From Myxococcota bacterium (lineage in GTDB: Bacteria; Myxococcota_A; Polyangia; Nannocystales; Nannocystaceae), in contig JBCCHT010000001.1 of NCBI GenBank assembly GCA_039028615.1, forward strand, positions 256,001-320,000: a DNA stretch of 64,000 nucleotides, written 5' to 3'. Below, piece by piece: positions 12,424-51,113 of this stretch; position 1 is the stretch's first letter; every line of letters begins with the position of its first letter. The translations under genes were made by a program, and so were the position numbers. Under the pieces are notes generated by a model. That model worked only from the letters and a program-made list of their open reading frames with translations, did not search any database and had not been told where the DNA came from.

Positions 12424-14613
12424 TCACTGCTCCGCGTGGGCCACGACCACCAGCGCAATCTCGTCGCCTACCTCTTCGCACGCGACATCGAGGCAGCGCT
12501 GCTCACTCTCCGGGTCGAGCGCGGAGAAGCTCTCGTCGAAGACGAGGGCACTGGCATCGTTGCGCATCAACGCGCGAAGCATGGTCAGCCGGTTCCGCTC
12601 GCCGTGGCTCAGCTGCCAGCCGCACTCACCGATCGGCTGGTGGACCCCCGCAGGCATCCGAGCCAGCAGGTCCGACAGGCCCAGCTTTGCGATGAGCTCG
12701 TGCAGCCGCTCCATGTCCTCCTCGCGCGGCGGCCATGGCCGGCCGAGCAGCGCGTTGAAGGCAAAGGTCTGCGTGAGCACATGGCTCTGGTGAAACTGCG
12801 GCACCACGACCACCGCGCGGCGCCACGCTTCGTCACCGACGGTCGCCCGATCGAGGCCGCGGACGGTGACGAGGCCATGCTGTGGGCGAGCGCGTGCGCC
12901 CAAGATCGACAGTAGCGTCGACTTGCCGGACCCCGACGGCCCCTCGAGGAGGATCCGATCACCGCGGCCAATCTCGAGGTCGGCGCCTCTCAGCACGGGG
13001 TTGGTCGCCTGCTCGGGAGAACCCGCCGGGCCGTGCCCCGGGTGGTAGAAGACGATGTCGCGCGCGCTGACGACCGCGTCCTCGGACGAGGGTTCGTCAG
13101 TCTCTACGACGTGTCCGGTTTGCGCAGGCAAGGCCGACCGCGGGGTGCTCGGTCGGGCCTTGGCTCCCGCCCGAACGAGCGGCATCAACTCGCGCATCGA
13201 CGCGAGCCCGCGGGTGAGCTGCTGAATCCCCCCTTGCGCGCTCTCGAGCGCCTGCTGGCACAGCAACACGCCACCGACCGCGACCGCCAAGCTCGTGCCG
13301 CTCGCGGAACCTTCGATGAGCGCAGGGATCGTCGCCATCATGCCGGCCACCAGCCAGGCGCGATCGAGCGTCCATACCGGCAATAGCCGACGATCGAGGG
13401 CTTCGACGGCCGCGTAGTGCCGGGCGAGTTCGTCGTCTTCCGCGACGTGACGGTGCGCTTCGTCAGTCTGCACCAGCCGAGTGCGGTGGCCCTGCATGCG
13501 CTCGATGAGCCCGGCCGTCGTCTGGGCACGCACGACCGCCATCGTCTGCTGGGCCTTCATGAGTCGCCGCAGGATGACGGCCGAGATCACGAGGAACACG
13601 ACGAAGGCCAGCATCAGTACGACGAGTCCGCTGAGCACGAGGATCGCCCCCGCGACGATCAGCTGGATGGCGGCCAAGATTGTCGCGAGCGTCCCCGCGA
13701 TGAGCAGCGAGTCGACCGAGCCCGCTTCCATCACGCGCGCAAAGGCCCGCGACTCGCCATCGGGATCGGGGGCGGCGACGCCCAGCGCCATCGCACCATG
13801 AATGAGGCGCACCTTGAGCGCGCTCGAGGCCTCGAGCGACAGCGCAGCCGCGGCCGTGCTCGCGAGACCGCGGAGCACCACCACGCTGAGCCAGCAGCAC
13901 GCCCACCCCACCAACCATCCGGGCTCGAGCGTCCCGCTGAACGCACCGCTGCCGAGCAAGATCCAGGCGACGATGGCCAGCGCCATGATGGCGATCTGAC
14001 TGACGAGCAGGATCGCCATGGAGCGCAGGCCCCCCGCTCTCGCGATGGTCGCGAGGAGACCATGGCTCGGGTGCGACGAGAGCAACCAGATGCGGGGCGC
14101 GGAGGGATCGGGGCTGGAGCCGCCGTGGGGCAGCGACGTGTCCGTGCGCAGCCGCTTGAGGGTTCGAGTCGCGCGTCCTCGGTGAAGGCTCGGTACGGCC
14201 GCCGAGAGCTTGGCGAGCAATGGATCTTCGGCCGAGCGCGACACGAACCGGGCGAGCGCCCGCGGTGCGACCATGACCACCAGCCCGTCGGGCCCTACGA
14301 CACGCAGCTTCCCGAAGCGTCCGCGCGTGACCGCGAGCCAACCATCCTTGGCCGGGATCTGAACGATCGCAGGCGGAGCAGCGACCCACGCCGCCCGGTC
14401 TTGCTCGCCCTGCCCGTCGCCGACGTCCTCGACCTCGACCGCTCGCAGTCCCACGCCGGCCGCGACCTGCTCGACGGTCGGCGTCAGCCCGAACGTCCTC
14501 GACGGGTCGTCGTGGTTGGACGGCAGCCGGCTTTGGCGATCCCCCGCGAGCGCGCGAACACACGCCCCCATCGCCGACGCGGGCCAGACCGCGGCATCCA
14601 GGTCTACGCTCAT
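12424..14613 (-). CDS. ABC exporter subunit (TMD+NBD, degenerate N-terminal C39-like domain)
   Basis: Walker A GPSGSGKST, LSHGERNR, VFDESFSALD; no catalytic QxxxxDCG; overlaps the upstream transporter stop. Confidence 0.85.
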   Translation of the reverse strand: MSVDLDAAVWPASAMGACVRALAGDRQSRLPSNHDDPSRTFGLTPTVEQVAAGVGLRAVEVEDVGDGQGEQDRAAWVAAPPAIVQIPAKDGWLAVTRGRFGKLRVVGPDGLVVMVAPRALARFVSRSAEDPLLAKLSAAVPSLHRGRATRTLKRLRTDTSLPHGGSSPDPSAPRIWLLSSHPSHGLLATIARAGGLRSMAILLVSQIAIMALAIVAWILLGSGAFSGTLEPGWLVGWACCWLSVVVLRGLASTAAAALSLEASSALKVRLIHGAMALGVAAPDPDGESRAFARVMEAGSVDSLLIAGTLATILAAIQLIVAGAILVLSGLVVLMLAFVVFLVISAVILRRLMKAQQTMAVVRAQTTAGLIERMQGHRTRLVQTDEAHRHVAEDDELARHYAAVEALDRRLLPVWTLDRAWLVAGMMATIPALIEGSASGTSLAVAVGGVLLCQQALESAQGGIQQLTRGLASMRELMPLVRAGAKARPSTPRSALPAQTGHVVETDEPSSEDAVVSARDIVFYHPGHGPAGSPEQATNPVLRGADLEIGRGDRILLEGPSGSGKSTLLSILGARARPQHGLVTVRGLDRATVGDEAWRRAVVVVPQFHQSHVLTQTFAFNALLGRPWPPREEDMERLHELIAKLGLSDLLARMPAGVHQPIGECGWQLSHGERNRLTMLRALMRNDASALVFDESFSALDPESEQRCLDVACEEVGDEIALVVVAHAEQ

Positions 14614-17453
14614 GGCGCCTCCCGTTGTGGCTCGTCGCAGACCTGCCCATCGCGCAACAGCACCCGGCGAAAGCCGCGTCGGGTCCACTGCGATGCGCTC
14701 TTCTGAGCCGCCTCGTGCATGCGGGCAAAGACCCCTTCACTCACGGCCAGCTCCTTCGGATCGCCGTCCTGCACGATCGCCCCGTCGGCGAACACCAGCA
14801 CGCGCTCGAAGTCATCGCACGCGCGCAGGTCATGCGTGACGCACAGCAGCGTCTGTCGACGCGCGGAGGCCCGTCCACGGACCGCGGCCAGCAGCTCCCG
14901 TCGCTCCTCGAACTCGAGGCCGCGAAACGCCTCGTCGAGGATGACGAGGTCTTTGTCCGGGTCCACGAGCGCGCGGGCGAGTCTCAGGCGCTGGCCTTGC
15001 CCCCCCGAAAGCAGGGTGCCGCCCCGCCCCACTCGGGTCTGCATCCCGTCGCGGAAGGTGGTCAGCACTCCAGCGACACCCGACCCGGCGGTTGCATCCA
15101 CCACGCGATCGGGTGTGGCCGCATCCGAGTCGTGCCCGTACGTGATGTTGTCCAGGACCGTGCCTTCCCACAGCTGAACCTGCGGGTCGATCCACGCGCA
15201 CCGTCGACGCAGCGAAGTGATCCTGTCCTTGGTCACCGAGAGCCCATCGATGAGCATGCGACCGGCGCTGGTCTGCAAAAAGCCCAGCAGCACGGCCACG
15301 AAGCTGCTCTTGCCCGCCCCGGAGAGCCCCACGATGGCCACTTGCTCGCCCGCCGCGATGTCGACCGTGATTTCCCGAAGCCGTGGTCGATCCCAGCGGC
15401 CGACCGTGACTCGCTGCATGCTCAAGGCAATCCCACCCTGCGCACCAGCAGCGCGAGGCGAGTCGCCCTGCGCCACGGCCTTCGGGTCGTGCACCGGCTC
15501 CGATTCGCTGGCGTCGGCATCGGCGAAGACCTCGGCTTCCTCGGGAGCGGTCAGCGGCTCGATCAGTCGCGCGACGGTGTTGCGCAGCGGAGGCAGCTGT
15601 CGAAACGCGGTCGCGAGCAGCTGCCCGAACACGGGGATCTGCAGGCTCCAGTAGGCCACCAGCAGCACCCCGGGCGCACTCCCGGCTCCGGTGGCACCAA
15701 GCACCGCCGACTCGACGTAGATCCACACGCACGCGACGGCGGTCGCGGTGCCGAGCCCTGCGGTCAGAACCTCCACGGACAGCGCGATGCGTGCGTAGCG
15801 AGCCAGCGCTCGTCGCCACAGCGCCAGCAGGTGCTCGTGCTCGTCGAGGATCGCCGTCTCGCCGTTCATCGCCCGCAGCGTCGTTCGACCGAGCAGCGCA
15901 TCCAGGTACACCCGAGTGAGCGCGCCGCCCTGCGTCTGGGCCCGAAGCTCTCGCTCGTCCATGGTCGAGCGGAACAGCAGCGGCACGACGATGGTCGCCA
16001 CGCTACCCCCGACCGCCCACGGCCAGGTCTGTGGCGACAACCAATAGAGCCCGATCACGATGGCGACCAGCCCCGCGAAGACCTCGACGAAGGTGCCGAG
16101 CAGGTGCGGGACGGCGCGTAGCGTGGAGATCAAGTGCGCGCGGTAGGCCATGTCCGAGGACAGGCGGCTACGGAAGTGCGTATCGGGAAGACGACCGATC
16201 TTCTCGCGCAGGGCCACGCGAAACCGATGCTCGAGCCGTCGACCGAAGCGCAAGGTCAGCGAACGCGTCCGCACGTCCAGCCCCCACAGCCCCGCGAACA
16301 ACACGGCCGCGAGAGCCGGAGCGGCCACCCGTTGCCACGGCAGCGCCAAGAACGGCTCGATGGTCAACAGCGCCCGAAACAGCAGGCCCTGCACCAAGGT
16401 CGAGAAGGCACCGAGGGCGGTCGCCACCATGGCAAACGCCACGACCAGTCCGCCGCTGCTGACGAGCATGGAGCCGATCCATCGCCACGGCCCGTGCTCC
16501 GGCTCCGCAAAGCGAGCACGCGCCGCATCCTGGTCGACTTGCCCGCTCGCGTCGATGAGCGGTTGTTCCCCGGCGACTGCTTGCGGGGGCGCTTCATCGT
16601 CGTCGTCGTCCTCCTCCTCCTCCTCGGATTCTTCGTACTCCGCGAGTTCTTTGGCGGTGATGCGTCGCACCAAAACCGCTCCGCGAAGCCACGCCGCCGG
16701 GACCCCGAGAATCTGCTCCCCCGGCAGTGTGTCTTCTGCGTCGGTGATGACGGAGAAACACTGGTGCGGGATGACGACCGCGTGGTCACTGAAGATCGTC
16801 GCCAGGGCCGTGGCCGCGGTCCGTCCTCGTCGTAGCGCCCGGGCGTGACACAGCTTGTCGACGAGCCGAAGAGCCCCGTCGAGCCGGCCGATACCCGCGA
16901 TGGTCGGCCGTGACATCGCCTCCCGATGAAGCGGCTCGAACGTGGCCTGGTTGATGCCGAGGGTCCGCGCCCGTCGAAACAAACAACCGCGGAACTCGTC
17001 CCCCTCGAGCCAGTCACGCACGGCGTCGAGCGGCACCGGCATCGTGTGCAGGTAGAGGTTGCGCTCGAGCTCGTCGATCGTCATCCACCGCCGGCCCTCG
17101 GCCGGATCCATGACTTGAACGAAGCGACCCACTCGGCGCCACACCACGACGAAATGGTTCACCCCGCCTGGTAAGGCCACGACGGCCAGCGCGGGCAGGG
17201 CCTCCGCCTCGGGCAGGCACAGGTGGTCGAAGGGCTGCATGACCTGCTCGAGCGGCACGCCGAGTGCACAGCCCACCGCCTCGAGATCGTCGATGGAGGT
17301 CCCGTCGACATCGGTGCGGCACGCCTCGCGCAACCGCCCGTAAGACACGCTGCTACCGAGGCCGTCCAACAACGACTTCAAGGACGCCGGACCGCAGTCC
17401 ATCATCGAGGTCTGCACGACCTCGGGGGCAAAAAACGGCAGACGTCGGCTCAC
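14610..17453 (-). CDS. Peptidase C39-containing ABC transporter (PCAT)
   Basis: QTSMMDCGPASL (Cys), NHFVVV (His), VMDPA (Asp); TMD; GLSGAGKSS, LSGGQGQR, ILDEAF. Confidence 0.9.
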   Translation of the reverse strand: MSRRLPFFAPEVVQTSMMDCGPASLKSLLDGLGSSVSYGRLREACRTDVDGTSIDDLEAVGCALGVPLEQVMQPFDHLCLPEAEALPALAVVALPGGVNHFVVVWRRVGRFVQVMDPAEGRRWMTIDELERNLYLHTMPVPLDAVRDWLEGDEFRGCLFRRARTLGINQATFEPLHREAMSRPTIAGIGRLDGALRLVDKLCHARALRRGRTAATALATIFSDHAVVIPHQCFSVITDAEDTLPGEQILGVPAAWLRGAVLVRRITAKELAEYEESEEEEEDDDDDEAPPQAVAGEQPLIDASGQVDQDAARARFAEPEHGPWRWIGSMLVSSGGLVVAFAMVATALGAFSTLVQGLLFRALLTIEPFLALPWQRVAAPALAAVLFAGLWGLDVRTRSLTLRFGRRLEHRFRVALREKIGRLPDTHFRSRLSSDMAYRAHLISTLRAVPHLLGTFVEVFAGLVAIVIGLYWLSPQTWPWAVGGSVATIVVPLLFRSTMDERELRAQTQGGALTRVYLDALLGRTTLRAMNGETAILDEHEHLLALWRRALARYARIALSVEVLTAGLGTATAVACVWIYVESAVLGATGAGSAPGVLLVAYWSLQIPVFGQLLATAFRQLPPLRNTVARLIEPLTAPEEAEVFADADASESEPVHDPKAVAQGDSPRAAGAQGGIALSMQRVTVGRWDRPRLREITVDIAAGEQVAIVGLSGAGKSSFVAVLLGFLQTSAGRMLIDGLSVTKDRITSLRRRCAWIDPQVQLWEGTVLDNITYGHDSDAATPDRVVDATAGSGVAGVLTTFRDGMQTRVGRGGTLLSGGQGQRLRLARALVDPDKDLVILDEAFRGLEFEERRELLAAVRGRASARRQTLLCVTHDLRACDDFERVLVFADGAIVQDGDPKELAVSEGVFARMHEAAQKSASQWTRRGFRRVLLRDGQVCDEPQREAP

Positions 17454-18631
17454 GGCGAGCGCCCACCGGGTTCGCCGTTGATGGAACGCCCGAGCGCCTG
17501 CAGCATGAGCTCGGCCGGTGTGCTCGTCGCGGTCTCGATCTCGACCTGGCCGGGCAAGCCGTGCACGAGCCGCTCGGCGAGGTCACTCTCCGTGCCATCG
17601 TCCGACACGATCGCGAGTTCGACCCGAACCCCACGTTGTGAGCGCTCACGAGCGACTTCTCTCACTTCGAGTGTCAGCGATCCGTACGACAGCCACGGAA
17701 ACGCATCGAGCCGCATGCGTCCGGTGGCCCCCTCGGCGACTCGACCAAACGCTTGAGACGCGGCCATCCAAGCCACGACGCGAAGCTCTGCACGTCCGAC
17801 CAGGGCGGCCAATGTCTCCCCTTTCCCCACCACGTCTCCGGGGGCATGCCCTTCGAGTGCGGCGACGTAGCCCGACATCGAGGCTCGAACTACGTGGCGT
17901 TCGACGATATCGTTCGCGTCCGCGACATCGGCCTCGAGACCCCGCGCCTCCTCGGTCAAGGCCGCTTCTTCGCCGCGCAGCGTCGCCATGCGCTCCTCGA
18001 CCTCCGCCGCCTTGAGCCTTTGTTCAGCGACGAGTTCTGCCTCTGTATATCGAACGACACCGACTTGAGCAGACAGGGCACGAGAGGTCGCGACTGCGCC
18101 TTCTCGTTCGGCTTGTGCAATCATCCCCGTCAACGCCATTGCCCGGGCGGCCTCCGCTTGTGCACTCTTGGCCCGAGCAACGGCGGCACGGTGCTTTTGC
18201 CGTGTACTCGCTCGGGCACTGTCGTTGACCTGTTCGAGCGCCTCGAGCTGGAGTTCGAGCGCGTCGATACGAGCAACGAGTGCCGTCTTGCGGGTCTGGA
18301 CCGCTCGCAGCTTGCTCTCGCGAGCAACGAGAGTTCGTCGGGCCGCGCTCGCGTCCAACGACACCAACACATCGCCTTCTTCGACCCATTCCCCCAACTC
18401 CACCTCGACCCGCTCCACCACGCCATCCAGGCTCGGTTGAGCGGCAACCGGCAATTCGACGCTCTCGACTCGAGCGTCGGCCGTCGTGGCGTATTGCCTC
18501 ACTTGCGCAAGGACAGCCCAGGCCATCCACCCCGCAAAGACGACCGCGACAATGACGAGAATGAACCGCACATCACCCGCGAACGGGTCGCGACTCATTG
18601 CACGTAAGGTACGAGAAAAGGGTCGAGCCAT
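17450..18631 (-). CDS. HlyD family secretion adaptor
   Basis: N-terminal TM, lipoyl-like GVVERVEVELGEWVEEGDVL, long coiled coil, RLDAFPWLSYG. Confidence 0.85.
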   Translation of the reverse strand: MARPFSRTLRAMSRDPFAGDVRFILVIVAVVFAGWMAWAVLAQVRQYATTADARVESVELPVAAQPSLDGVVERVEVELGEWVEEGDVLVSLDASAARRTLVARESKLRAVQTRKTALVARIDALELQLEALEQVNDSARASTRQKHRAAVARAKSAQAEAARAMALTGMIAQAEREGAVATSRALSAQVGVVRYTEAELVAEQRLKAAEVEERMATLRGEEAALTEEARGLEADVADANDIVERHVVRASMSGYVAALEGHAPGDVVGKGETLAALVGRAELRVVAWMAASQAFGRVAEGATGRMRLDAFPWLSYGSLTLEVREVARERSQRGVRVELAIVSDDGTESDLAERLVHGLPGQVEIETATSTPAELMLQALGRSINGEPGGRSP

Positions 18632-18858: not shown

Positions 18859-19014
18859 ATGACTGACAACAAGATCACTGATAGCAAAGCGACCACGAAC
18901 TCCAAGAAGGCGACTTCGAAGGGGATCAAGGTCCGTAGCTCCGTTCGTGCCGCTGCTGCAGCTGCTGCCCCCGCAGGTGCCATCGGTGCTGCGCCTCGTT
19001 GGATGTGCTTCTAA
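18859..19014 (+). CDS. Putative RiPP precursor/scaffold peptide, 51 aa
   Basis: Manual translation: MTDNKITDSKATTNSKKATSKGIKVRSSVRAAAAAAAPAGAIGAAPRWMCF*; too short for the ORF track; lies between the PCAT/HlyD genes and the tailoring operon; followed by a stem-loop. Confidence 0.75.
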   Translation: MTDNKITDSKATTNSKKATSKGIKVRSSVRAAAAAAAPAGAIGAAPRWMCF

Positions 19015-19030
19015 TTAGAAGCTAGCGGCA

Positions 19031-19074: not shown

Positions 19075-19081
19075 GGCCTTT

Positions 19082-20065
19082 ATGCGGATCCGCGCTCGTA
19101 TGCAATCATCATCACATCCATCGTCGCAGCTCGAACGACTGGTCGAATGTTGGCCCAGGCGTGCGGGCGTGCGACGTGACGAGTTCTACGAGCAGGACTA
19201 TGGGAACACGGACGATACCCGCCCAGATTACCCGATAAACATCGTTCCGTTTGAAGAGCACCCCAACTTCCAGGCGGCTTCGCCTGAGCAGAGAGCTTCG
19301 GTATTGACCGGAGCATGGTTGGCCTACAACGAGCGAGTGATCGAAATCGAGCATCTCGTCACGAACCCTGCAATTGATCTACTGCTAAGGGGAACCCTTC
19401 CTGGCGCAAGTAATCCAGTGGTGCGGCAGGCCCTGCAGCAGACACTCATCGATGAGCAATTTCATTTGATGATGCACGAGCAGGCGATTCGCGAGACACG
19501 GCTGAAAAATCCGTGGACCAGCGAACTCGAACTCCCGCATTCGATCGTATTTCGGAAACTGCACGTCTTGCGTGCCGAATGCCCCGAACAATGGCAAAAG
19601 GATCTATTGATGCTGTTGTGGGCAATCGTCTCCGAGATGACGATCAACGCCTACCTCAATCTATTGTCGCGCTCGGACAACATCCGTGAAGTGAATCGCC
19701 GACTGAACTGGCTCCACAATCGTGACGAACTCGCCCACAACGAGATATTCGTAGAGATCAGCAAGGCCGTATTCAGGGCCCTCAACCCTCATCAACGAGA
19801 CTTTTTCCTGCAGATGCTCCCCCGCACGGTGGAAGCCTTCACGTCGCACGACTTCTCCTCCTGGGAGGCGGTCCTGCGGGCTACGAAGCTCCCCGGCACG
19901 GCGACCATCATCGGAGACTGCAAGGATAAGTCCGGGAAATTACTAAGCGACGTGTCTTACGCCTATCGCCTCCTCGAGCACTTGGAGATCGTTGGATCGA
20001 CGGACGTCGACCAGCGGGTAGCGGCGAATTCCCGTCAATCCTCCGAGTCTCAGGTGCTCGTGTGA
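19082..20065 (+). CDS. AurF/CmlI-like diiron N-oxygenase
   Basis: Ferritin-like ligand pattern: EIEH, LIDEQFHLMMH, VSEMTINAY, HNRDELAH. Confidence 0.8.
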   Translation: MRIRARMQSSSHPSSQLERLVECWPRRAGVRRDEFYEQDYGNTDDTRPDYPINIVPFEEHPNFQAASPEQRASVLTGAWLAYNERVIEIEHLVTNPAIDLLLRGTLPGASNPVVRQALQQTLIDEQFHLMMHEQAIRETRLKNPWTSELELPHSIVFRKLHVLRAECPEQWQKDLLMLLWAIVSEMTINAYLNLLSRSDNIREVNRRLNWLHNRDELAHNEIFVEISKAVFRALNPHQRDFFLQMLPRTVEAFTSHDFSSWEAVLRATKLPGTATIIGDCKDKSGKLLSDVSYAYRLLEHLEIVGSTDVDQRVAANSRQSSESQVLV

Positions 20066-20874
20066 TCCAGCAGCCGCGAATCCTACCATTCAGCGAGCTT
20101 CAGCACTGGACTGCGAGGACTTGCGAATTTCTCGGCAGGCCGCTCGTCGTCTCATTCGACGAGCAACCTCGCGAGACGATCCTGAAGCCGGATGAAGCCG
20201 GTGTCAGTAAGTCGCAGGCATACATCCAGCACAGTGAGGCAATCTGGGACAAGCACGTGGCGCGACACGGGGGAAACCTCTGGAACGGTCGTGTTTGTAC
20301 GATTCAGAGCATCGAGGTCGCCGACGGACGGCTCACGCTCGGAACCGGCACTTGTGGCTACAAGGACATTATCTTTAAGCAAGAGCTGGGCATCGAAGCA
20401 TTCGTGAAATCCTACGGCCCCGAGACCTTCGACGTGCACGGCGTGACCGGTATCGTCCCCATCACCGAGACCCACGAGGTGATTCTCGGCGAAGTCGGCA
20501 AAGGTACAATTCAAACTCCAGGGTGTCTCGACATCATCGGGGGAACCCTCAACCGGGACGAGCATTCGGTGGAGTCCTTCACCGATATCGCCCAATTGGC
20601 CGCCGCGGAACTCCGCGAAGAGACGAGTGTGAGCCTCGAGCCAGGGCAACTTCGGCTCGCGTCACTCGGCTTCTACGACGGTCGCTGCTACGTCTTGTTC
20701 CTCGCGCAAACCCACTCACGGGAGTTCGAGGTCGACGCGACGCTCAATGACGAACTCGCCGCTGTTCATCGACTCTCGCTGAGCAGCATTTCCCAAACAA
20801 AAATGCCCACGACCCGTGACGTCGCATACTTGCAGACGTATGCCGACAGCATCCTGCCCTCACGGGCATCATGA
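20062..20874 (+). CDS. Nudix hydrolase-like protein
   Basis: GGTLNRDE...AAAELREETSV Nudix box variant; GTGA overlap with the upstream stop. Confidence 0.65.
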   Translation: MIQQPRILPFSELQHWTARTCEFLGRPLVVSFDEQPRETILKPDEAGVSKSQAYIQHSEAIWDKHVARHGGNLWNGRVCTIQSIEVADGRLTLGTGTCGYKDIIFKQELGIEAFVKSYGPETFDVHGVTGIVPITETHEVILGEVGKGTIQTPGCLDIIGGTLNRDEHSVESFTDIAQLAAAELREETSVSLEPGQLRLASLGFYDGRCYVLFLAQTHSREFEVDATLNDELAAVHRLSLSSISQTKMPTTRDVAYLQTYADSILPSRAS

Positions 20875-22524: not shown

Positions 22525-22528
22525 ACCC

Positions 22529-30195: not shown

Positions 30196-30489
30196 GTCGA
30201 GAAGCATAGGAGAGCATGGGCCTTGCGTCATGGCCGTTTTGTGCTCGGGGCCGCACACCGAGCGCTCGAACAGTCACATCGCCGACCGCCCCACAGGCGC
30301 GCCGACGGAGCGCGACGACAGCCGGTGAACTCACCACCTTCATCGCAAAGATCGAGCGCGAACCGGAGCCTCTCAGGCCCGCTCACGCGGTCGGTTACGC
30401 CCGGCTTCGTGCCGTGTGGAGCCATTGCACGCACCGCCTTTTTCGTTGTAAATCACGTCTCCGGCCGACGTGTCGTGGAGGCTCGCTCG

Positions 30490-42451: not shown

Positions 42452-43831
42452 TCAGAACTCCGCGTAGGCCTCGACGATGGAGCGCATGCTCGACCCCGAG
42501 CGCAATAGGCGGAGCGCGTGGCCTCCCGGGCACTCGAGCTGCTCTGCGCGTCGATACAGCGGCTTGAGGAAGACCTCTTCTCCTCGGCCGCGCTCTTGCA
42601 GACCGCGATGAGAGAGTTCGACGAGGCGCTCGAGGACCTTGCGCATCTCCGCCGCCGGGGCGATTTCTTCCTGGCGGCCGACGTTCACCAGCCGTCGGAG
42701 CTCGGAGTTCGACAGAGACGTGCCGAGCGCGTCGAGCACTTCCTCCACCTCGAGGAGATGCTCGCGACATCCGAGCACGAACGCGGCCGGAGCGAACGCG
42801 TCTCGCAGCGGCTGCTCGCAGAACGAGCGAATCTCCACCGTCTTGTGCTTCGTGAGCGTGATGTTCTTGAAGCCCTTGAACCCCTCGAGGTGCTCGAGGC
42901 TCGGATGGACGACCGTCTCGCGGGGCTTGGTCCAGTCCTCCATGAACCACCCGGGGAGGGTCTCCGTCTCGGGCATCAGCAAGTAGTCGCGGAGCGGGAG
43001 CGGACGGAAGCAGATGAGCCCCGGGTCGGGCGTCTTCCACATCGCGAGGTCGGCCATGGCCTCGCAGACGTCCGTGACGCTGCGAAAGTCCCGGTCGTGT
43101 GGACCGAGGTTGCCCTCGAGCGTCCCGTAGACGCTGTCCGCATAGAACAGGTCTCGGCTTCCCACCCACGGCCCGACCGCCTCCCCCTCGCGCGGAGGCA
43201 CGATGGAGTTGGAGAACAGTAGAGCGAAGATCCAGTCGAGCTTCGAGTAGACGCGGAACACATCGGGCAGCTCGTCGACACTACAGTCGACGTGCACCTG
43301 CGAGGCGTTGACGAACGCGAAGAAGTCTCGATGATAAAACTGTGACTGTTTCGGGTGCACCTGCGCGAAGTGACGAAGCAGTCGATAGTTCGAGACCTCC
43401 AGGGGGTCGGTGTTCATCGTCTGGAAGTTGGGGTGGAGCCCCAACCCAGACAAGACCACGCCCTCGGGGGCCAAGGCCTGCTGCATGCAACGAAGGTAGT
43501 CGTAGCTGCGCTCGGCGACCTCGTTCAGGTCCTGCCCCGGTGCGAGCGCCAGCTCGATCATGTGGAAGCAGTACTCGAACGCGATGAAGTCACCGTTGCG
43601 GGTATTCGTGGCCGCGACGAGTCGGCCCGACGCGTCGCGCTTCCCGGGCTCGAGGGCAAAGGTCTCGACGAGACGCTCCAGCGCCGCGACGGCCACGTCG
43701 GGTTCGACGGAGCCGCCATCGAGCGCGACCAGAGGGATCTCGAGCTCGATACCGAAATCAGAGCCGGACTTTCGAACCATCGGCTCGACGTAACGTTCAA
43801 AGAGAATTTCGGCCGCGTGCATGGGAATCAA
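42452..43831 (-). CDS. Glutamate--cysteine ligase-like (gamma-glutamyl ligase) protein
   Basis: FGIELEIPL, IELA, ASQVHVD, ALLFSNS, VEIRSFCEQP. Confidence 0.75.
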   Translation of the reverse strand: MIPMHAAEILFERYVEPMVRKSGSDFGIELEIPLVALDGGSVEPDVAVAALERLVETFALEPGKRDASGRLVAATNTRNGDFIAFEYCFHMIELALAPGQDLNEVAERSYDYLRCMQQALAPEGVVLSGLGLHPNFQTMNTDPLEVSNYRLLRHFAQVHPKQSQFYHRDFFAFVNASQVHVDCSVDELPDVFRVYSKLDWIFALLFSNSIVPPREGEAVGPWVGSRDLFYADSVYGTLEGNLGPHDRDFRSVTDVCEAMADLAMWKTPDPGLICFRPLPLRDYLLMPETETLPGWFMEDWTKPRETVVHPSLEHLEGFKGFKNITLTKHKTVEIRSFCEQPLRDAFAPAAFVLGCREHLLEVEEVLDALGTSLSNSELRRLVNVGRQEEIAPAAEMRKVLERLVELSHRGLQERGRGEEVFLKPLYRRAEQLECPGGHALRLLRSGSSMRSIVEAYAEF

Positions 43832-46371
43832 CCGTGACGGGATGCAGAGCGCGGAGTCGAAGTCTCGGCTTCGACATCATCACCGCGGCGGGCGGTCGCA
43901 TCGACCGCGCACACGCGAAGCTCACACGTGTAAGAGCGCCCGGAGGCGTCGGGAAGCCAGGTCTCGTGGGGCCCGGGCAGCATCTCGGAGACGTCGACGT
44001 ACTCGACCTTCGACGTGATGTAGAGCAGCGCCTCCACGAGGAAGGGGTTGTCGAAGTCGATCATGATCGGCTTCCGCTCGCTCGGGCTCTTGACGAAGAC
44101 GCGACGGGGAAGACCGTGGGTCTGCGCCCAGCGACGCACGGAGAGAAAGCTCGCCGCATCTCCCCCCGCGGCCTTCGTGGGACAAGGCAGGCGCCACCGT
44201 TCGCGGGAGATGACGACCCCATCGACGGTGACCCGGGGCAGGCGCTCGCTGTCGAGGAGCTGAAACGACTCCGGCGCAGCGTTGACCAGGTAGTTGTCGA
44301 GCACCACGCGAAAGTCCAGCGTCAGGCGCCCATCTCGTGTCGCCACCACGAGCGTGCCCTCGGCGTCACGAGTGACGACGAGGTCTCCGATCGCGAGGGT
44401 CCGCGCCACCGCCGGATCCGGGGGAGGCCACGAAGTGTCCAGCACCGTGAGGGACGGGCAGTTGGGCGGCACGTGATGCCGCGCGCGTTGAAACTCTTCT
44501 CCCGGCGGAGCGGGGCGAACGACCTGCGGCAGGTCCTGCGCGTAGGCCTGCGTCGCGACGGCGAGCACGTCTGGGGAGAGCTTCAGGATGCATGGGAACA
44601 GCACCGTGTTCGCGCAGGGGTGAATCTCACCGAGCACGGGCAGGAAGTCGCCGCTCGCCATGGCTTCCGCGCTCGATGCCGCGAACATCAGGTCGGGAGA
44701 CTGAAAGCAGGCGTTCGGCCACCCCGGCTCGCTCGCCTCGAGCAGCGGCCCCAGGCGCTTCCTCATCTCGGTCACCGTCAGCTCGACGGGCGCGTAGTCG
44801 GCATCGACATTGAGCGAGTCCAGCCACGCCCGCTGGAAGTCGACGAGCAAGACCTCACCGCGAGCTTGGTTGAGGAATCGTTCGGACGCCGTCGCGAGAA
44901 AGCGCGGGAAGTCGGCCCTTCCCGTGGCGTCCGCGAGCTCGGTCTGCAGCGCATCGAACTCGGGGAGCAGGTCCTCCCACAGCCGGGCCGTGTAAGCACG
45001 GATCGTGTCGTAGACGAGCTCGAGCGGCTCGAGGCGCGGCAAGACGTCTTCGCTGACGTTCATGCCGACATCTCGAGCGCATTCGAGGTACGCGATGCTT
45101 CGCGCTTCGTAGGTCTTGCCTCCGCCGCGGCGTGCCGACCATCCCGTGACCTCCTCGAAGAAACGCTCGAGTTCGGTCAACGCCGCCTTCACCTCCGCGA
45201 CGCCTCGAGACTCTTCGAGGGCGGTCCGCAGCTGCTCGAGCCGCTCGAGTCGCGCCTCCCACGGCGCATGGGCATCCGGGGGGAGAATGTTGGCGAGCTC
45301 CGTCCGTAGGGTCAGGTTCGGACGCGTGTCGAGCACGGGCACGATGGGCACGCGGGTGATGGCTCCACGCTCCTCGATCGAACTCAGGGCGGATTCGAGG
45401 TCGGCCGGGCTGTCGAAGACCGACTCGGCCTTGCACAGCAGTTTCTCGAGTTTGTGGATTGCACGGGTCCCATCACACAACCCCACGAGGCGTACCCAGG
45501 CCGGAGGAAGCTCCTCCGTCCGCCCATCGGCATGACGGAGCGTGTGCCCCTCCACGTAGACCGTGGGCATCTTGCGGGGTCGCAGATGCGGCTTTGCCTG
45601 GGGATCGCGTGCGACGGCCTGCGCGATCTGGACCATCGCCCAGTGCTCCAGGAACACCTCGCGCTTTCGCAGCAACGAGGCACCCGGCTCGAAGCTCGAG
45701 GGCCCATCGACGAACTCGCCGACCGAAGCCGCACCGAAGTAGCCAATCGTGTCGTTCTTGGCCAAGAAGCGCTGCAGGTACATCATGGCGAGCCGCTCGC
45801 CCGTACGCACCGAGTGATTCCGCTCGACGGGAAGACCATCGCCGATGAGGGCCTCGACCCGCGTGGAGGCGGTGGGGCTCTGCCAGTGCACCGCTTCGCG
45901 CACCGCGTCGTCGGAGACGAGCTCCCGCAAGGTCTGCCGCACTCGGGGCAGCTCTTCGCCCCACGCGGACATGAAGCTGTCGAACGCGGCCTCTCTCGAT
46001 TCTTCCGCGACGACCCATTGTCCGAGTTGCGGAATTCGGCCGCCCAACGCCGCGAGATCCTCCTCGCGCAAACGCTTGCTCGCCCGAAGCTTGGTTCGGG
46101 CCCGCCGTGCCCGGATCTTGAGGGCACGACGCTCCGCTTCGTCGACCTCCTCGTAGGCATACTGCTGCAGGGCCTTCAGCGCCTGCTGTCGGGCGAGTGC
46201 GGCTTCGTGGGTCCGAGAGGCAAGCTCGTCTGCCGCAGCGGAAGCGGCATCGACACAAAGGCGCCCGAGCCCCTCGATGGGAAAGCCCGCCGAGCGTACG
46301 AGGAACCACTGCCAATACCGCCATCGCGATGCTGAGGAGCCGCGGTGATGGGACAGTGAAGGAGTCTGCAT
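43828..46371 (-). CDS. Stand-alone LanB glutamylation-domain protein (peptide aminoacyl-tRNA ligase, PEARL-like)
   Basis: LVRSAGFP, VREAVHWQ, YLQRFLAKNDTIGYFG, QSPDLM, VLGEIH, PRVTVDGVVISRERW, FVKSPSERKP, SEMLPGP..W...G..YTCELR; ends without an elimination domain. Confidence 0.85.
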   Translation of the reverse strand: MQTPSLSHHRGSSASRWRYWQWFLVRSAGFPIEGLGRLCVDAASAAADELASRTHEAALARQQALKALQQYAYEEVDEAERRALKIRARRARTKLRASKRLREEDLAALGGRIPQLGQWVVAEESREAAFDSFMSAWGEELPRVRQTLRELVSDDAVREAVHWQSPTASTRVEALIGDGLPVERNHSVRTGERLAMMYLQRFLAKNDTIGYFGAASVGEFVDGPSSFEPGASLLRKREVFLEHWAMVQIAQAVARDPQAKPHLRPRKMPTVYVEGHTLRHADGRTEELPPAWVRLVGLCDGTRAIHKLEKLLCKAESVFDSPADLESALSSIEERGAITRVPIVPVLDTRPNLTLRTELANILPPDAHAPWEARLERLEQLRTALEESRGVAEVKAALTELERFFEEVTGWSARRGGGKTYEARSIAYLECARDVGMNVSEDVLPRLEPLELVYDTIRAYTARLWEDLLPEFDALQTELADATGRADFPRFLATASERFLNQARGEVLLVDFQRAWLDSLNVDADYAPVELTVTEMRKRLGPLLEASEPGWPNACFQSPDLMFAASSAEAMASGDFLPVLGEIHPCANTVLFPCILKLSPDVLAVATQAYAQDLPQVVRPAPPGEEFQRARHHVPPNCPSLTVLDTSWPPPDPAVARTLAIGDLVVTRDAEGTLVVATRDGRLTLDFRVVLDNYLVNAAPESFQLLDSERLPRVTVDGVVISRERWRLPCPTKAAGGDAASFLSVRRWAQTHGLPRRVFVKSPSERKPIMIDFDNPFLVEALLYITSKVEYVDVSEMLPGPHETWLPDASGRSYTCELRVCAVDATARRGDDVEAETSTPRSASRHG

Positions 46372-46583: not shown

Positions 46584-47828
46584 TCAGCCTTTGGTGGCGA
46601 CCGGGAGGTGAAAGCGAAAGCGGTTGTCTTCAATGAGACGGGAGTAGCTGCCGAATGTCGCATCTGGATTACTCACGCGATCCAGACTGGTTTCTTCGTC
46701 CGGCACGTGATCCCCGGAAAAGCGGCGAAGTGTTCGATAACGAGTATCGCGCTCGACCGGCACACGGCCGGCCTCGCGAATGATCCGTCGAAGACTCGCG
46801 GGAGATTGGAATTGCCCATGCCGAGCCCCCGCGGAAGTGGAGATACTCTCATTGATGAGTGTGCCCCCTAGATCATTGGCACCACAGCTCAGCATTGCTT
46901 GCGCCATATTGACCCCTTCTTTGACCCAGGACACCTGAATATTGCGGAAGGTGGCACCGAGCATGAGTCGCGCAATCGCGTACAGCCGCGTCACTTCATT
47001 CGCCGTCGGGCCGGGGCGGAGCGAGGGCAGAAGCCGTCGCATGTGCATCGGTGCTTCTTCGTGGACGAACGACAGCGGCACGAACTCCGTGAACCCTCCC
47101 GTTTCACTCTGTAGCCGCCGCAGATAGTCGAGATGCCGCATCCGCTGCAGGTCGTTCTCGATGTGGCCATGCATCAACGTCGCGGTCGTGGGCACCCCCG
47201 CGGCGTGCGCGGCCCGAATCACCTCGGTCCACTCTGCCGTCGTGATCCGACCCGGAGCGATTTTGTCGCGCACGCCGTCGTCGAACACCTCCGCTGCGGT
47301 CCCAGGCAAGCTGTCGACACCGGCCTCTTTGAGTTCGACGATGAACTCTGCGATTGACACCCCTCGGAGCTCGGCGCCGAACTTCACCTCTTCTGGGGAG
47401 AACGCATGCACATGCAGCGCGGGCACGGCCGCCTTCACCGCCTGCACGAGATCGACGTAGTAGTCGGGGTCCTGGCCCGGAGCGAGCCCGCCTTGAATGC
47501 AGACTTCGGTCGCCCCGTAGTCGTGGGCCTCCTTGGCGCGACGCACAATCTCGTCGGTATCGAGAAAGTAGCCCTCTTCGCTGCGGCGTGTTCGCGAAAA
47601 GGCGCAGAACCGACAGCCCTTGATGCAGACGTTGGTGAAGTTGATGTTCCGATTGATGACGTAGCCGACGTCGTCGCCCACCTGCTGCCGTCGAAGCTCG
47701 TCCGCCGTCTGCATCAGGGCATGAAGCTCGGGGCCGTTGACCGTGCACAGCCGGACGGCGTCGTCGACCGCGAGTTCACGGCCGTTCAGCACGCCGTCGA
47801 GGATGGTCCTGATTTCTCGATCAGACAT
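46584..47828 (-). CDS. cofH: FO synthase subunit 2 (radical SAM)
   Basis: NRNINFTNVCIKGCRFCAF, SLPGTAAE, GGFTEFVPL, NIQVSWVK, NDLGGTL. Confidence 0.93.
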   Translation of the reverse strand: MSDREIRTILDGVLNGRELAVDDAVRLCTVNGPELHALMQTADELRRQQVGDDVGYVINRNINFTNVCIKGCRFCAFSRTRRSEEGYFLDTDEIVRRAKEAHDYGATEVCIQGGLAPGQDPDYYVDLVQAVKAAVPALHVHAFSPEEVKFGAELRGVSIAEFIVELKEAGVDSLPGTAAEVFDDGVRDKIAPGRITTAEWTEVIRAAHAAGVPTTATLMHGHIENDLQRMRHLDYLRRLQSETGGFTEFVPLSFVHEEAPMHMRRLLPSLRPGPTANEVTRLYAIARLMLGATFRNIQVSWVKEGVNMAQAMLSCGANDLGGTLINESISTSAGARHGQFQSPASLRRIIREAGRVPVERDTRYRTLRRFSGDHVPDEETSLDRVSNPDATFGSYSRLIEDNRFRFHLPVATKG

Positions 47829-48975
47829 GGGAGATTTCCTCGGACGCCAGGCGTGACCGCGCGGCATGGACCTGCTCGTGCAGCTGCGGATCCAGCCACA
47901 CCTCGTCGATGTAGCGATCGTAGATCGGCAGCCGGGGTTGGAGCGTGAAGCCCTGCTCTTCGCATCGTTGCGCCATCCGCTTCAGGTGCGGCCAAGGATG
48001 CCTCGGGTTGATGTAGTCGGGTGTGACCGGCGAAATGCCCCCGAAGTCGTTGATGCCCGCGCCGAGGAGCGCTCGAATCGAAGACGGGTTGAGGTTCGGC
48101 GGCGCTTGGATCGAGATCTCGGGGTCGAGGATCAGGCGCGCCAGCGCGACCGTGTCGAGGATGACGTCCTCGTCGGGTTCGGGAGCGTCCGCCATGCGGG
48201 TCCCGGCCACCGCCCGAAAGTTCTGCACGATGACCTCTTGGATGTGCCCGTGTTCGCGATGGCTGCGACGAATCGCGAGCAGACTCTGCACCCGCTCGCG
48301 CCGCGTCTCGCCGATGCCGACCAGGATTCCCGTGGTCATCGGGATGCGCAACGCTCCCGCCTGGTCGATCATGCGCATGCGCTTGGCGGGGCGCTTGTCC
48401 GGGGCGCGGTGATGCGGCATGCCCCGTTCGCACAGCCGAGGGCTGATGTTCTCGAGCATGATGCCGAGGCTCACGTTGACTTCTCGCAGCCGTCGCATCG
48501 CCTCGACATCGAGGATGCCCGCGTTGGTATGCGGCAACAGGCCGAGGCTCAGCGCACGCTGGCCGGCCCAGACCAGATAGTCGACCGTACTCCCCTGCCC
48601 CAGTTGCTGGAGGGTCTTGCGGTACGAGCCGAACGCGGTCTCCGGTGTGTCGCCGAGGCAGAGCAGAGCCTCTGCGCAGCCCTCGCCACGGGCGCGATTC
48701 AGGGCTTGCTCGACCTGCTCGGGCGTCATCGTCCACTCCCCCGGGTCACCCGGTGAGCGACGGAACGAACAGTAGTCGCAGCGATTGCGGCACAAGTTCG
48801 TCAGCGGCAAAAAGACCTTGGGCGAAAACGTGACCGTGTTGCCGAAGTAGCGGTCTCGCAAGGCCGCCGCCTCGGCGCGCAACTCGGCCGCTGGCACCCC
48901 GGTCTCGACCAGGGCCAGCGCCTCCCCTTCGAGGAGTAACGGTGGTGATTGCACGCGGGGCGCTTGGAGCTGCAT
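47821..48975 (-). CDS. cofG: FO synthase subunit 1 (radical SAM)
   Basis: FLPLTNLCRNRCDYC, PHTNAG, TTGILVGIGE, QEVIVQNF, QAPPNL, GGISPVTPDYINP. Confidence 0.93.
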   Translation of the reverse strand: MQLQAPRVQSPPLLLEGEALALVETGVPAAELRAEAAALRDRYFGNTVTFSPKVFLPLTNLCRNRCDYCSFRRSPGDPGEWTMTPEQVEQALNRARGEGCAEALLCLGDTPETAFGSYRKTLQQLGQGSTVDYLVWAGQRALSLGLLPHTNAGILDVEAMRRLREVNVSLGIMLENISPRLCERGMPHHRAPDKRPAKRMRMIDQAGALRIPMTTGILVGIGETRRERVQSLLAIRRSHREHGHIQEVIVQNFRAVAGTRMADAPEPDEDVILDTVALARLILDPEISIQAPPNLNPSSIRALLGAGINDFGGISPVTPDYINPRHPWPHLKRMAQRCEEQGFTLQPRLPIYDRYIDEVWLDPQLHEQVHAARSRLASEEISHV

Positions 48976-50149: not shown

Positions 50150-51052
50150 ATGATGTCGAAAAAACGTATCGGACTGTACATCGACCTGTGGGATCAAGGC
50201 GTCGACGGCAAGGAATATGGCTGGAAAGACGTCAAGGGAATGGCGCAGATTGCCGAGCAGAACAATTTCGACACCTTCTCGCTTCCCGATCGCTTGCACA
50301 TCTGGGGACATGGTCAATGGGAGTCGACCACCATGCTCGCCGCCGTTGCGGCAGTGACGTCCACCATCAAGTTGGAAATTGGGGTTATGCGATCGATTTA
50401 TCGCAACCCCACACTCGTCGGAAAGATCGTCGACAGTATTCAGGAGATCAGCGGAGGTCGCCTGATCTTGGGACTGGGCGCGGGCAGCGACGTCGGCGAG
50501 AACAAAGAGTACGGCTACCCCGAGAACTACCGCTATTCGCGATTCGAGGAATCTCTGCAGATTCTCCTCTCGCTCCTGCACACTGGCAAGGCGGACTTTC
50601 AGGGTCGGTTCTACCAAGCCAACAATTGCATGCTCACGCATCGCGAGTCGAAGCACCCGGTGCCGCCCCTGTTCATCGCGGCGAAGGGCCCGAAGATGCT
50701 GCGACTCGCTGCTCGCCACGCCGACATCTGGAACATTCCCATCGTCCCGGACTCCCCGGACGGGTGGAAGACCCACCTGAAGGACCTCGAAGAAGCGTGC
50801 GAGGAAGTCGGGCGAGATCCCGCGACGCTCGAGAAGCACGCCATCGTGGCGATTCCGTCCCCGAACAAGGACATCAAGCACCCCGGCGAGGGCTTCGACG
50901 GAACGCCGCTGAGCCGAGACGCCCGACAGGCCGCCGATCAGGTGGAGGTGTTCTTCGAGGCCGGGTTCAAGGAAATCCTGCTTTGGCCCGCGGTGTGCTC
51001 GGCTCAGGCCGTCGAAGAGATGGTCCCGCTCGTCGAGCTGCTGAAGAGCTAG
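50150..51052 (+). CDS. LLM-class (probably F420-dependent) oxidoreductase
   Basis: WESTTMLAAVAAVTSTI, RNPTL, SGGRLILGLGAG, GPKMLRLAARHADIWN; F420 dependence inferred from context. Confidence 0.85.
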   Translation: MMSKKRIGLYIDLWDQGVDGKEYGWKDVKGMAQIAEQNNFDTFSLPDRLHIWGHGQWESTTMLAAVAAVTSTIKLEIGVMRSIYRNPTLVGKIVDSIQEISGGRLILGLGAGSDVGENKEYGYPENYRYSRFEESLQILLSLLHTGKADFQGRFYQANNCMLTHRESKHPVPPLFIAAKGPKMLRLAARHADIWNIPIVPDSPDGWKTHLKDLEEACEEVGRDPATLEKHAIVAIPSPNKDIKHPGEGFDGTPLSRDARQAADQVEVFFEAGFKEILLWPAVCSAQAVEEMVPLVELLKS

Positions 51053-51086: not shown

Positions 51087-51113
51087 CAGAACCCCCGGTC
51101 ACCGGGGGTTCTG
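51087..51113. terminator. Perfect GC-rich hairpin after the LLM gene (terminator-like)
   Basis: CAGAACCCCCGG-TCA-CCGGGGGTTCTG; no poly-T tail. Confidence 0.55.

Follow-up and report, generated by a model that had tools for sequence, protein, structure and literature searches.

The gene cluster and its shared core

The stretch of DNA analysed here (the window, 64,000 nt in full, positions 256,001 to 320,000 of contig JBCCHT010000001.1) comes from a 12.3-Mb Myxococcota genome of 68% GC that is rated 96.7% complete. It carries a large cluster of specialized-metabolism genes that opens with a second gene for cysteinyl-tRNA synthetase (CysRS) and closes with a perfect hairpin. Twelve functions of this cluster recur together in an uncultured metagenome-assembled genome (MAG) of the Legionellales. 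We are highly confident that this 12-function core is one conserved system, and we consider it likely, with a little less assurance, that the system is biosynthetic. Gene families were assigned by Pfam and NCBIfam profile searches, and the features are given below as core genes or as add-ons.

10852..12405, + strand: second full-length cysteinyl-tRNA synthetase (cysS); core function; start codon approximate; TIGR00435, 411 bits against a cut-off of 340
12424..14613, - strand: ABC exporter, second subunit; add-on; counterparts of 32-37% identity in two congeners
14610..17453, - strand: C39 peptidase-ABC exporter; add-on; PF03412 and ABC; counterparts of 36-39% in congeners G002 and G004
17450..18631, - strand: HlyD adaptor; add-on; profile match; G+C at third codon positions (GC3) 0.69
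18859..19014, + strand: open reading frame (ORF) for a 51-aa precursor-like peptide; add-on; 67 bp 5' of the AurF gene on the same strand
19082..20065, + strand: AurF/CmlI-type diiron N-oxygenase; core; E 6e-70 to AurF 3chh
20062..20874, + strand: Nudix-fold hydrolase, NUDT22-like; core; no Pfam match, assigned through structure-based Atlas clusters
20871..22007, + strand: NAD-dependent nucleoside diphosphate (NDP)-sugar dehydrogenase/epimerase; core; PF01370
21985..22524, + strand: Cys-type (CX5R) phosphatase; core; weak DSPc match
22529..27763, + strand: nonribosomal peptide synthetase (NRPS) with an unassigned N-terminal piece, adenylation (A, Cys-type), thiolation (T), heterocyclization (Cy), A remnant, T and thioesterase (TE) domains; add-on
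27795..28850, - strand: lactonase, 7-bladed propeller; PF10282; in this copy only, not on the Legionellales contig
28978..30207, - strand: DegT-type pyridoxal phosphate (PLP) aminotransferase; core function, non-orthologous
30490..32493, + strand: C25 (gingipain/caspase-fold)-like protein, 667 aa, two CxxC motifs; add-on
32506..34870, - strand: cofE-cofD-cofC; add-on; TIGR01916, TIGR01819 and TIGR03552 above cut-off
34908..35543, + strand: npdG, F420:NADPH oxidoreductase; add-on; TIGR01915 above cut-off
35550..36746, - strand: ArgE-type M20 deacylase; core; TIGR01892 above cut-off
37054..38007, + strand: RimK-type ATP-grasp ligase; core; profile matches
38004..38795, + strand: short-chain dehydrogenase/reductase (SDR), nearest family PRK07074; core; 295 bits, below the cut-off of 361
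38829..39971, + strand: enolase-superfamily (MR/MLE) enzyme; core, the best conserved
40139..41047, - strand: S-adenosylmethionine (SAM) methyltransferase; add-on; profile match
41083..42447, - strand: Xaa-Pro aminopeptidase (aminopeptidase P, PepP); core; profile matches
42452..43822, - strand: GCS2-like gamma-glutamyl ligase; add-on; weak match, E 2e-4
43828..46371, - strand: stand-alone LanB glutamylation-domain protein, PEARL type; add-on; PF04738 alone
46584..48975, - strand: cofG-cofH; add-on; TIGR03550 and TIGR03551 above cut-off; 21 bp after the C26 gene
48997..49782, - strand: C26 amidohydrolase-like protein without the catalytic His; core; PF07722; start approximate
50153..51052, + strand: luciferase-like monooxygenase (LLM) family oxidoreductase, probably F420-dependent; add-on; top families are F420 LLMs, all below cut-off
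51087..51113, no strand: perfect 12-bp hairpin after the LLM gene

The second copy of the core was found by scanning GTDB genomes with an alignment of the closest relatives of the AurF-type enzyme, which gave 66 loci. One of these, on contig CAYGTS010000034.1 of the Legionellales MAG (19,126 bp, 35% GC), matches ten further genes of the window; the other 65 match at most three window genes each, through generic domains. There, a co-directional run encodes the AurF, Nudix, DegT, NDP-sugar dehydrogenase, phosphatase, ArgE, aminopeptidase P, CysRS, ATP-grasp, SDR and enolase proteins and a small ORF, and a facing run encodes a B12 radical SAM protein, a flavin monooxygenase, an Asp-hydroxylase-like protein and the C26 protein. 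For ten of the 17 proteins of the contig, the best match in the entire 12.3-Mb genome lies inside the window (AurF 48% identity, Nudix 24-29%, dehydrogenase 49-51%, phosphatase 45%, ArgE 44%, PepP 48% against 32% for the next paralogue in the genome, ATP-grasp 66%, SDR 52%, enolase 74%, C26 48%). The Legionellales DegT (26.5%) and CysRS (28%) find in the window only their third-best and second-best matches, respectively, and the remaining five proteins have no window counterpart.

The Legionellales contig therefore holds counterparts of 12 window genes, two of which, DegT and CysRS, are unrelated stand-ins. Since both functions are present in both copies although the genes are unrelated (26-32% identity), the functions appear to have been retained while the genes themselves were swapped. 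Gene order is kept within two stretches, AurF-Nudix-(DegT)-dehydrogenase-phosphatase and ATP-grasp-SDR-enolase. Core genes that are spread over 10.8-49.8 kb of the window (~39 kb) form one 12.6-kb block in the Legionellales MAG, and for this reason the core is not a chance pile-up. The Legionellales copy also has a tailoring set of its own (contig positions 89-4697), in which the B12 radical SAM protein is KedN5-like and is accompanied by the flavin monooxygenase and the Asp-hydroxylase-like protein. A second ATP-grasp gene lies at 17686-19056 of the contig and is divergently read.

The core is rare. Its enolase and ATP-grasp genes occur in one of 73 genomes of the family, the present one, and were not found in the other 72; no further copy of the core was seen in these 72, in two other genomes of the order of the Legionellales MAG or in 399 others of its class. 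A family search for AurF in 301 genomes of the phylum gave matches in 39. On plasmids, seven regions with matches to AurF, ATP-grasp, enolase or PEARL were read, none of them with the core, and the viral contigs searched gave no match. The best reading of these comparisons is that the core has moved horizontally, and that the further modules would have been recruited to it in this genome.

The cluster comprises about ten transcription units in both directions and is not one operon. Its genes are nonetheless as tightly packed as the earlier note on this DNA had described them (8 of 28 junctions overlap and a further 11 have gaps below 40 bp). The families named in that note are all found by Pfam or NCBIfam at the places it gave, with the GCS2 match weak and the LLM match below cut-off, and its right-hand hairpin, 3' of the LLM gene, is indeed perfect and occurs once in the genome. 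The left boundary has to be redrawn. The note had placed it at cysS, as a housekeeping gene flanking the cluster, and this was rejected because the gene encodes a second CysRS, unique to this genome among the 73 and with a counterpart inside the Legionellales operon; it belongs to the system.

In five congeners, a DNA search returned no more than isolated single-gene matches of 63-72% (exporter, NRPS, cof, DegT), and strong conservation resumes at a tRNA-Ile gene (59802-59877). On the same side of this tRNA gene, two congeners carry variable genes that are unrelated to those of the window. No terminal repeats that would delimit an island were found. The stretch 17450-22524, with the HlyD, peptide, AurF, Nudix, dehydrogenase and phosphatase genes, has GC3 values of 0.63-0.75 against a 5th percentile of 0.77 for the genome, and is probably the least adapted and latest-gained part of the cluster. 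To the left of the second cysS, at 1850-7767, lie genes for a GMC oxidoreductase, a major facilitator superfamily transporter, an SDR and a GNAT acetyltransferase; transport and acetylation are functions that the core itself is without.

The only sequencing run that contains the window is a marine metagenome, and no RNA data set containing it is listed. Judged by its protein types, GC and genome size, the host is probably a marine myxobacterium. An assembly of the probable source run spans 12000-31900 at an even depth of 16.5-23 without a single letter difference, and the AurF and GCS2 genes both map to one 30,498-bp contig of this assembly. An assembly chimera is thus not supported, although the contigs come from the same sample as the window, are not independent of it and bear on mis-joining only. 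The linker of the C39 exporter contains a long acidic run of Glu and Asp (16585-16634), and the Logan assembly breaks at this point.

Extra CysRS genes, core enzymes and a proposed route

The housekeeping CysRS of the genome lies on another contig (C10) and shares 75-81% identity with the lone copy found in each of four congeners; the window CysRS is 34% identical to this housekeeping copy. Two CysRS genes occur in this genome only, among the 73 of the family (67 have one and five have none). Because it is 73% identical to the sole CysRS of a sister genus, the window CysRS looks to be an ordinary enzyme from another lineage. In the Legionellales MAG, too, the housekeeping CysRS is encoded on another contig, and a divergent second CysRS lies within the core operon. 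An extra CysRS is thus found in or beside the cluster in both known copies, inside the operon in one and 18 bp from the last exporter gene in the other. The two do not group in a 12-sequence tree, in which the Legionellales branch is long and its placement unsure. Both have HIGH and KMSKS-type motifs and a C-terminal anticodon domain, and both retain the zinc ligands at what we take to be the zinc-binding positions of CysRS.

That a spare CysRS was apparently gained twice, independently, next to this rare core is, in our view, the strongest functional clue that the comparison offers. Most simply, the extra CysRS would be a means of self-protection against the product, in analogy to clusters that carry a resistant synthetase. 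Feeding of the PEARL enzyme cannot account for the Legionellales CysRS, since no PEARL was found in the second genome.

The core enzymes point toward an unusual amine. In the AurF-type enzyme, E90, E125, H128, E185, H212, E216 and H219 align with the residues that we take to be the seven diiron ligands of AurF, and they are invariant in eight relatives; against the AurF equivalog NF045603 the protein scores 263 bits, with a cut-off of 620. Both of the two annotated plasmid AurF loci examined carry pabB. Because neither copy of the core has pabAB or aminophenylalanine genes, the amine substrate probably differs from those of the known AurF clusters. The Nudix protein falls with Nudix clusters of the Atlas (TM 0.80 against a NUDT22-like cluster, whose members are presumably UDP-sugar pyrophosphatases), and the closest structure to the NDP-sugar dehydrogenase is 6vo6 (E 2e-32), which we take to be the GDP-heptose 4-dehydrogenase Cj1427, a capsule enzyme of Campylobacter. 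The active-site motif of the phosphatase is identical in the Legionellales copy. The window DegT shares 53% identity with a paralogue on contig C56 and 26.5% with the DegT of the Legionellales operon. For the RimK-type ATP-grasp protein, the nearest structure is an alpha-L-glutamate ligase.

In the C26 protein the Cys of the Cys-His-Glu triad is kept and the His is replaced by Asp in both copies, whereas the other C26 protein of the genome retains its His; because of this replacement, the protein may carry an acyl group rather than hydrolyse it. In all three aligned sequences, the enolase-family enzyme has a His at the usual third acidic metal ligand and is without a Lys where strand 6 ends, with positions assigned by eye and set against what we take to be the family pattern. 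The next-closest enolase seen is that of Embleya (49.5%), with sugar-transport genes and an SDR as neighbours. A predicted structure model of the window enzyme was too poor for a fold search (pLDDT 42).

We hypothesize a route in which all of the chemistry is inferred from gene families. An NDP-sugar would be oxidized by the dehydrogenase and aminated by the DegT enzyme, and the Nudix enzyme and the phosphatase would then remove the nucleotide and the phosphate, leaving a free amino sugar. The SDR, with the aid of the lactonase in this genome, would convert the amino sugar to an aldonic acid, which the enolase-family enzyme would dehydrate or epimerize to yield a sugar-derived non-proteinogenic amino acid. 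The AurF-type enzyme would turn an amine into an N-O group, and the ATP-grasp ligase would couple the sugar-derived unit to an amino acid. Acyl groups could be taken off or shuttled by ArgE, aminopeptidase P and the C26 protein, in the manner of pro-drug ("Trojan horse") peptides. Once released, the compound would harm cysteinyl-tRNA synthesis, and each host would for that reason keep a second, divergent CysRS. In the present genome the product may be decorated further with a Cys-derived thiazoline by the NRPS, a tRNA-derived residue by PEARL, gamma-glutamylation and methylation, and an F420H2-dependent reduction of a C=N bond could be fed by the embedded cof genes. The first four steps, through removal of nucleotide and phosphate and oxidation to the aldonic acid, follow the logic of the puromycin and kanosamine pathways.

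In other words, the product is best read as a small molecule that would derive from an amino-sugar acid, be N-oxidized and be peptide-linked. The explanation as a whole, which joins a horizontally moved core, recruited modules, the route above and CysRS self-protection, is one that we put forward tentatively and that could well prove wrong in one part or another. A further step, which we regard as doubtful, would be to see here a new class of antibiotic pathway, in which a sugar-nucleotide-derived N-oxidized amino acid is delivered in the form of a peptide pro-drug that inhibits CysRS, perhaps by binding to the zinc of the enzyme. Such a pathway would have spread between marine myxobacteria and Legionellales, and the version seen here would have added an NRPS that forms a thiazoline, a PEARL that acts on a small molecule and an F420 supply of its own.

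Modules joined to the core and alternative readings

The NRPS has one complete A domain (a single AMP-binding domain) and a short A-like remnant before the second T domain; Cys must consequently be loaded by the first A domain or in trans. The best single-domain structure match of this A domain is BmdB, and its pocket agrees at nine of ten places with what we take to be the Cys specificity code. The Cy domain is intact, with DxxxxD and downstream Thr/Asp motifs, and is closest to the Cy domains of BmdB, EpoB and HMWP2. The GCS2-like ligase has nearest relatives of 31-39% identity, some of them fused to a GshA-type ligase or a class II amidotransferase, and no locus for it appeared in metagenomes, GTDB genomes or plasmids.

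The PEARL protein (847 aa) is a LanB glutamylation domain without an elimination domain, and its nearest relative is 38% identical. Its R26, Y198, R201, K205-T208, E582, H584, E817 and R819 do not vary among 13 relatives and, as candidate residues for binding of tRNA and the C terminus, seem to correspond to positions given in the available portion of PMC11962472. No full-length PEARL was found in 60 relatives, which gave three weak partial matches, and none of the 77 metagenome PEARL loci listed shares the GCS2, PepP, methyltransferase, AurF or cof genes, although the loci themselves are small, with a median of 9.2 kb and 19 of the 77 reaching 15 kb or more. On these grounds PEARL was rejected as a component of the core. 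An NRPS adenylation domain lies nearby in 32 of the 77 listed loci; PEARL beside an NRPS is common, not special, and NRPS-associated PEARLs may be a large group that acts on carrier-bound or small substrates. Two PEARLs of Streptomyces plasmids sit among NRPS or carrier-protein genes. The only candidate scaffold peptide for PEARL here is the 51-aa ORF, 25 kb away and with an exporter-type leader.

In the whole genome this ORF alone matches the leader pattern. Its leader ends in Ala-Ala, as against Ala-Gly in small ORFs at the C39 loci of G002 and G004, and it has no Gly at the expected cleavage site; another Ala-Gly lies nine residues further on. In 15 intergenic stretches, no second precursor ORF was convincing by composition or motif. 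The C39 domain of the exporter has its catalytic Cys, His and Asp motifs, and in G002 and G004 pairs of such exporter genes, 32-39% identical, adjoin other peptide clusters. The tiny ORFs with exporter-type leaders occur at ~19640 of the G004 locus and at ~12750-13210 of the G002 locus; in three of the G002 ORFs, which adjoin an asparagine-synthetase-like gene, the core is just 2-5 residues long, and the G004 locus has a PGM1-type ATP-grasp protein and a PhyH dioxygenase. The C25-like protein has an Atlas feature score of 0.97 to a "C25 family cysteine peptidase" cluster and His and Cys motifs; no sequence homologue was found, and its predicted structure model was too poor for a fold search (pLDDT 39).

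The cof set (cofC, D, E, G, H and npdG) is above the NCBIfam cut-offs throughout and consists of the sole copies in the genome. CofG is present in four of the 73 family genomes, and the other three have a contiguous cof cassette without core genes in the stretches examined. The usual order cofG-H-npdG-E-D-C is broken in the window, where 11 kb with core genes separate cofH and npdG. At 7810-16928 of the G002 cof locus, a methyltransferase gene lies within the cassette, and next come an SDR and a DDN-like reductase, the names being given by eye; the DDN-type F420 reductase of G002 has no match in the present genome. For the LLM protein, F420 families occupy the top ten ranks, led by TIGR03560 (140 against a cut-off of 231).

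None of these modules was seen with the second copy of the core. In the Legionellales MAG, PEARL was not found (no control genome gave a match either), nor was GCS2, and the search for the NRPS gave only one of 27-31% identity and another architecture; on the Legionellales contig, genes of the cof, LLM, exporter, peptide, methyltransferase, lactonase and C25-like types are not seen. The earlier note had described the whole as an undescribed specialized-metabolism system and defined it by four amide-forming chemistries and an embedded F420 supply. The first part holds, as the core forms one block in the Legionellales MAG, and the definition does not, since PEARL, GCS2, an orthologous Cys-Cy NRPS and cof were not found there. 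PEARL, NRPS and F420 are not the centre of the system. The title of the note left out most of the conserved core, the Nudix gene (20062-20874) included, and the extra CysRS was missed.

The add-ons are nevertheless closely joined to the core. The NRPS gene follows the phosphatase gene after 4 bp, the GCS2 gene lies 4 bp before the PepP gene and the PEARL gene 5 bp before GCS2, and cofG lies 21 bp after the C26 gene. On balance, we favour the view that most add-ons act on the same product as the core. A serious possibility, if not our expectation, is that only the core is one pathway and that the peptide with its C39 exporter, the PEARL-GCS2-methyltransferase group, the NRPS and the F420 cassette are separate passengers in a variable region near tRNA-Ile. 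This would agree with the cof cassettes that stand alone in 3 of the 72 other family genomes, with the exporter pairs that serve other clusters beside similar leader peptides in two congeners, with the return of conservation in five congeners only at 59.8 kb and with the lack of add-ons on the Legionellales contig; two other LLM genes of the genome could use the F420. The earlier note had itself allowed for sub-blocks that occur independently and are not co-regulated, and the solitary cof cassettes and C39 exporters of relatives bear out half of that. Against it, the add-ons have the direction of core genes and gaps of 4-21 bp to them at three separate junctions. The cof cassette is split in two by core genes with all six of its genes intact, and near the peptide there is no recognized peptide-modifying enzyme besides PEARL and the C25-like protein. 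This alternative concerns the add-ons only and is compatible with either role of the CysRS.

That other role would be biosynthetic. The same core could use its extra CysRS to put cysteine on the amino-sugar-derived scaffold, much as SbzA does with Ile and MshC with Cys, or to raise the supply of Cys-tRNA for a tRNA-dependent step such as that of PEARL. A precedent is SbzA, a full-length IleRS that, in the available text of PMC12945691, both confers resistance and transfers Ile from tRNA, and because it also transfers its amino acid we keep a donor role for the CysRS open. Possible users of cysteine in the window are the Cys-type A and Cy domains and PEARL, and the 51-aa peptide ends in Cys-Phe. 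However, two unrelated CysRSs of housekeeping type would then need the same non-tRNA acceptor, their scores for the MshC family (224 and 177) are far below its cut-off of 485, and the second genome yielded no PEARL. We consider a biosynthetic CysRS unlikely, though not negligible, and return to self-protection.

It is improbable that the core is catabolic or detoxifying, dismantling a foreign nucleotide-sugar or peptidyl amino-sugar compound against which the CysRS protects. Five of the 12 core functions are hydrolases, and the related Embleya enolase has its SDR and sugar-transport neighbours, but an ATP-grasp ligase, an AurF-type oxygenase and a DegT enzyme are typical of synthesis, neither cluster has a visible uptake system or regulator, and both copies have more tailoring-type enzymes (B12 radical SAM protein, flavin monooxygenase and hydroxylase in the Legionellales; NRPS and PEARL here). 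It is very improbable indeed that the core supplies a surface glycan with an unusual NDP-sugar or substituent, as the likeness of the dehydrogenase to 6vo6, presumably a capsule enzyme, and the DegT paralogue on contig C56 are set against the absence of any glycosyltransferase, flippase or polymerase from both clusters and against a Nudix enzyme and phosphatase that would destroy the activated donor.

Several points weigh against the explanation that we prefer, a biosynthetic core with recruited modules and a protective CysRS. Neither CysRS shows a visible resistance change or special resistance form, and resistance genes usually travel with their cluster, while the two CysRSs here are unrelated. 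AurF and CmlI act on aryl amines, and no pabAB or other aryl-amine supply gene was seen in either cluster. The SDR, enolase, lactonase and ArgE types also serve in the breakdown of sugar acids, as the sugar-transport neighbourhood of the Embleya enolase (49.5%) recalls, and no small-molecule exporter was seen inside either cluster. Only two copies of the core are known, both from uncultured MAGs; the completeness of the Legionellales MAG is not given, and its contig ends 88 bp before the radical SAM gene, such that missing genes may lie elsewhere. Only one of the 66 AurF loci and none of the 77 PEARL loci listed share the gene set, and among these loci no link of add-ons to core was seen outside this genome.

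Self-resistance genes point to drug targets, and two independent recruitments would make the idea of a CysRS-targeting product directly testable. A core without a standard scaffold enzyme may be missed by rule-based mining. It offers unusual enzymes, among them an AurF for which no aryl-amine supply is seen, a C26 protein that lacks the catalytic His and the enolase-family enzyme with its strong conservation, and the window illustrates how such a core could acquire NRPS, PEARL and F420 modules.

Comparison with known systems

In the open-access literature we found no described cluster with a CysRS-targeting product or with this combination of core genes; MIBiG and subscription journals lie outside that scope, and a described product is possible. 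The pathways of puromycin and A201A (aminonucleosides) and of kanosamine resemble the proposed route in using a dehydrogenase, a DegT enzyme, a Nudix enzyme and a phosphatase to obtain a free amino sugar or nucleoside. They differ in that here the dehydrogenase is an extended SDR, the Nudix protein NUDT22-like and the phosphatase of the CX5R type, and that sugar-acid oxidation and N-oxygenation appear to follow. The obafluorin, aureothin and chloramphenicol clusters have a close AurF/CmlI-type enzyme, and obafluorin pairs it with an NRPS and a resistant aminoacyl-tRNA synthetase (ThrRS); pabAB or aminophenylalanine genes, by contrast, are missing from both copies here.

For the PEARL and the peptide, sinefungin is a fitting model. 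In the part of the sinefungin study that is available (bioRxiv 10.64898/2026.05.21.726688), PEARLs aminoacylate a small molecule, and the precursor-like peptide can be dispensed with; the sin PEARLs adjoin a precursor-like peptide with a double-glycine-like motif, and a phosphatase is present. The sin core, as described there, is built differently, with a B12 radical SAM protein, a kinase, an arginase and two PEARLs, and with no AurF, NRPS or extra aminoacyl-tRNA synthetase. The pearlins (3-thia-amino acids of TglB/TmoB, ammosamide) share the stand-alone LanB glutamylation domain of ~850 aa with, apparently, the family motifs, as far as the accessible sections of PMC9303977, PMC11962472 and PMC12945691 describe it. 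In the window, no DUF692 enzyme or RRE partner was detected, the PEARL lies outside the shared core and the peptide lacks the PLALA-type C terminus named in the available portion of PMC11962472. PEARLs' specificity for amino acids is not yet predictable, according to the accessible text of PMC9303977.

A second aminoacyl-tRNA synthetase as self-resistance has precedents in AcmD of ascamycin and SbzA of SB-203208 (available sections of PMC12945691 and PMC13518217). The acm cluster shares with the present one an extra synthetase (the AlaRS AcmD) and an aminoacyl pro-drug released by a hydrolase, and differs in its nucleoside sulfamate chemistry with a dedicated AlaRS-like transferase, AcmF (PMC12945691, same sections); a transferase of that kind is not seen in this core. 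The sbz cluster (altemicidin, SB-203207/8; Streptomyces sp. NCIMB 40513) is alike in lacking a standard core enzyme and in having a second full-length class I synthetase, the IleRS SbzA, besides the housekeeping copy; it also employs an F420-dependent reductase, SbzF, and a methyltransferase, and removes a nucleotide part during the pathway (PMC12945691, PMC13518217, in the text available). However, no cof gene is named among sbzA-I in that text, and the sbz core consists of SbzP, a PLP enzyme that acts on NAD and SAM, in place of the NDP-sugar dehydrogenase, DegT, Nudix, phosphatase, SDR, enolase, AurF, RimK-type ligase and CysRS found here. Judged by the hallmarks of the sbz family, and without SbzP as a query, the only PLP enzyme of the present cluster is DegT-type, no GNAT lies inside it and its synthetase is a CysRS. 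Relative to the open-access literature, the cluster is of a known type, in which an aminoacyl-tRNA synthetase gene accompanies a pathway without a standard core, and what is new is the unmatched core gene set and a CysRS in that role.

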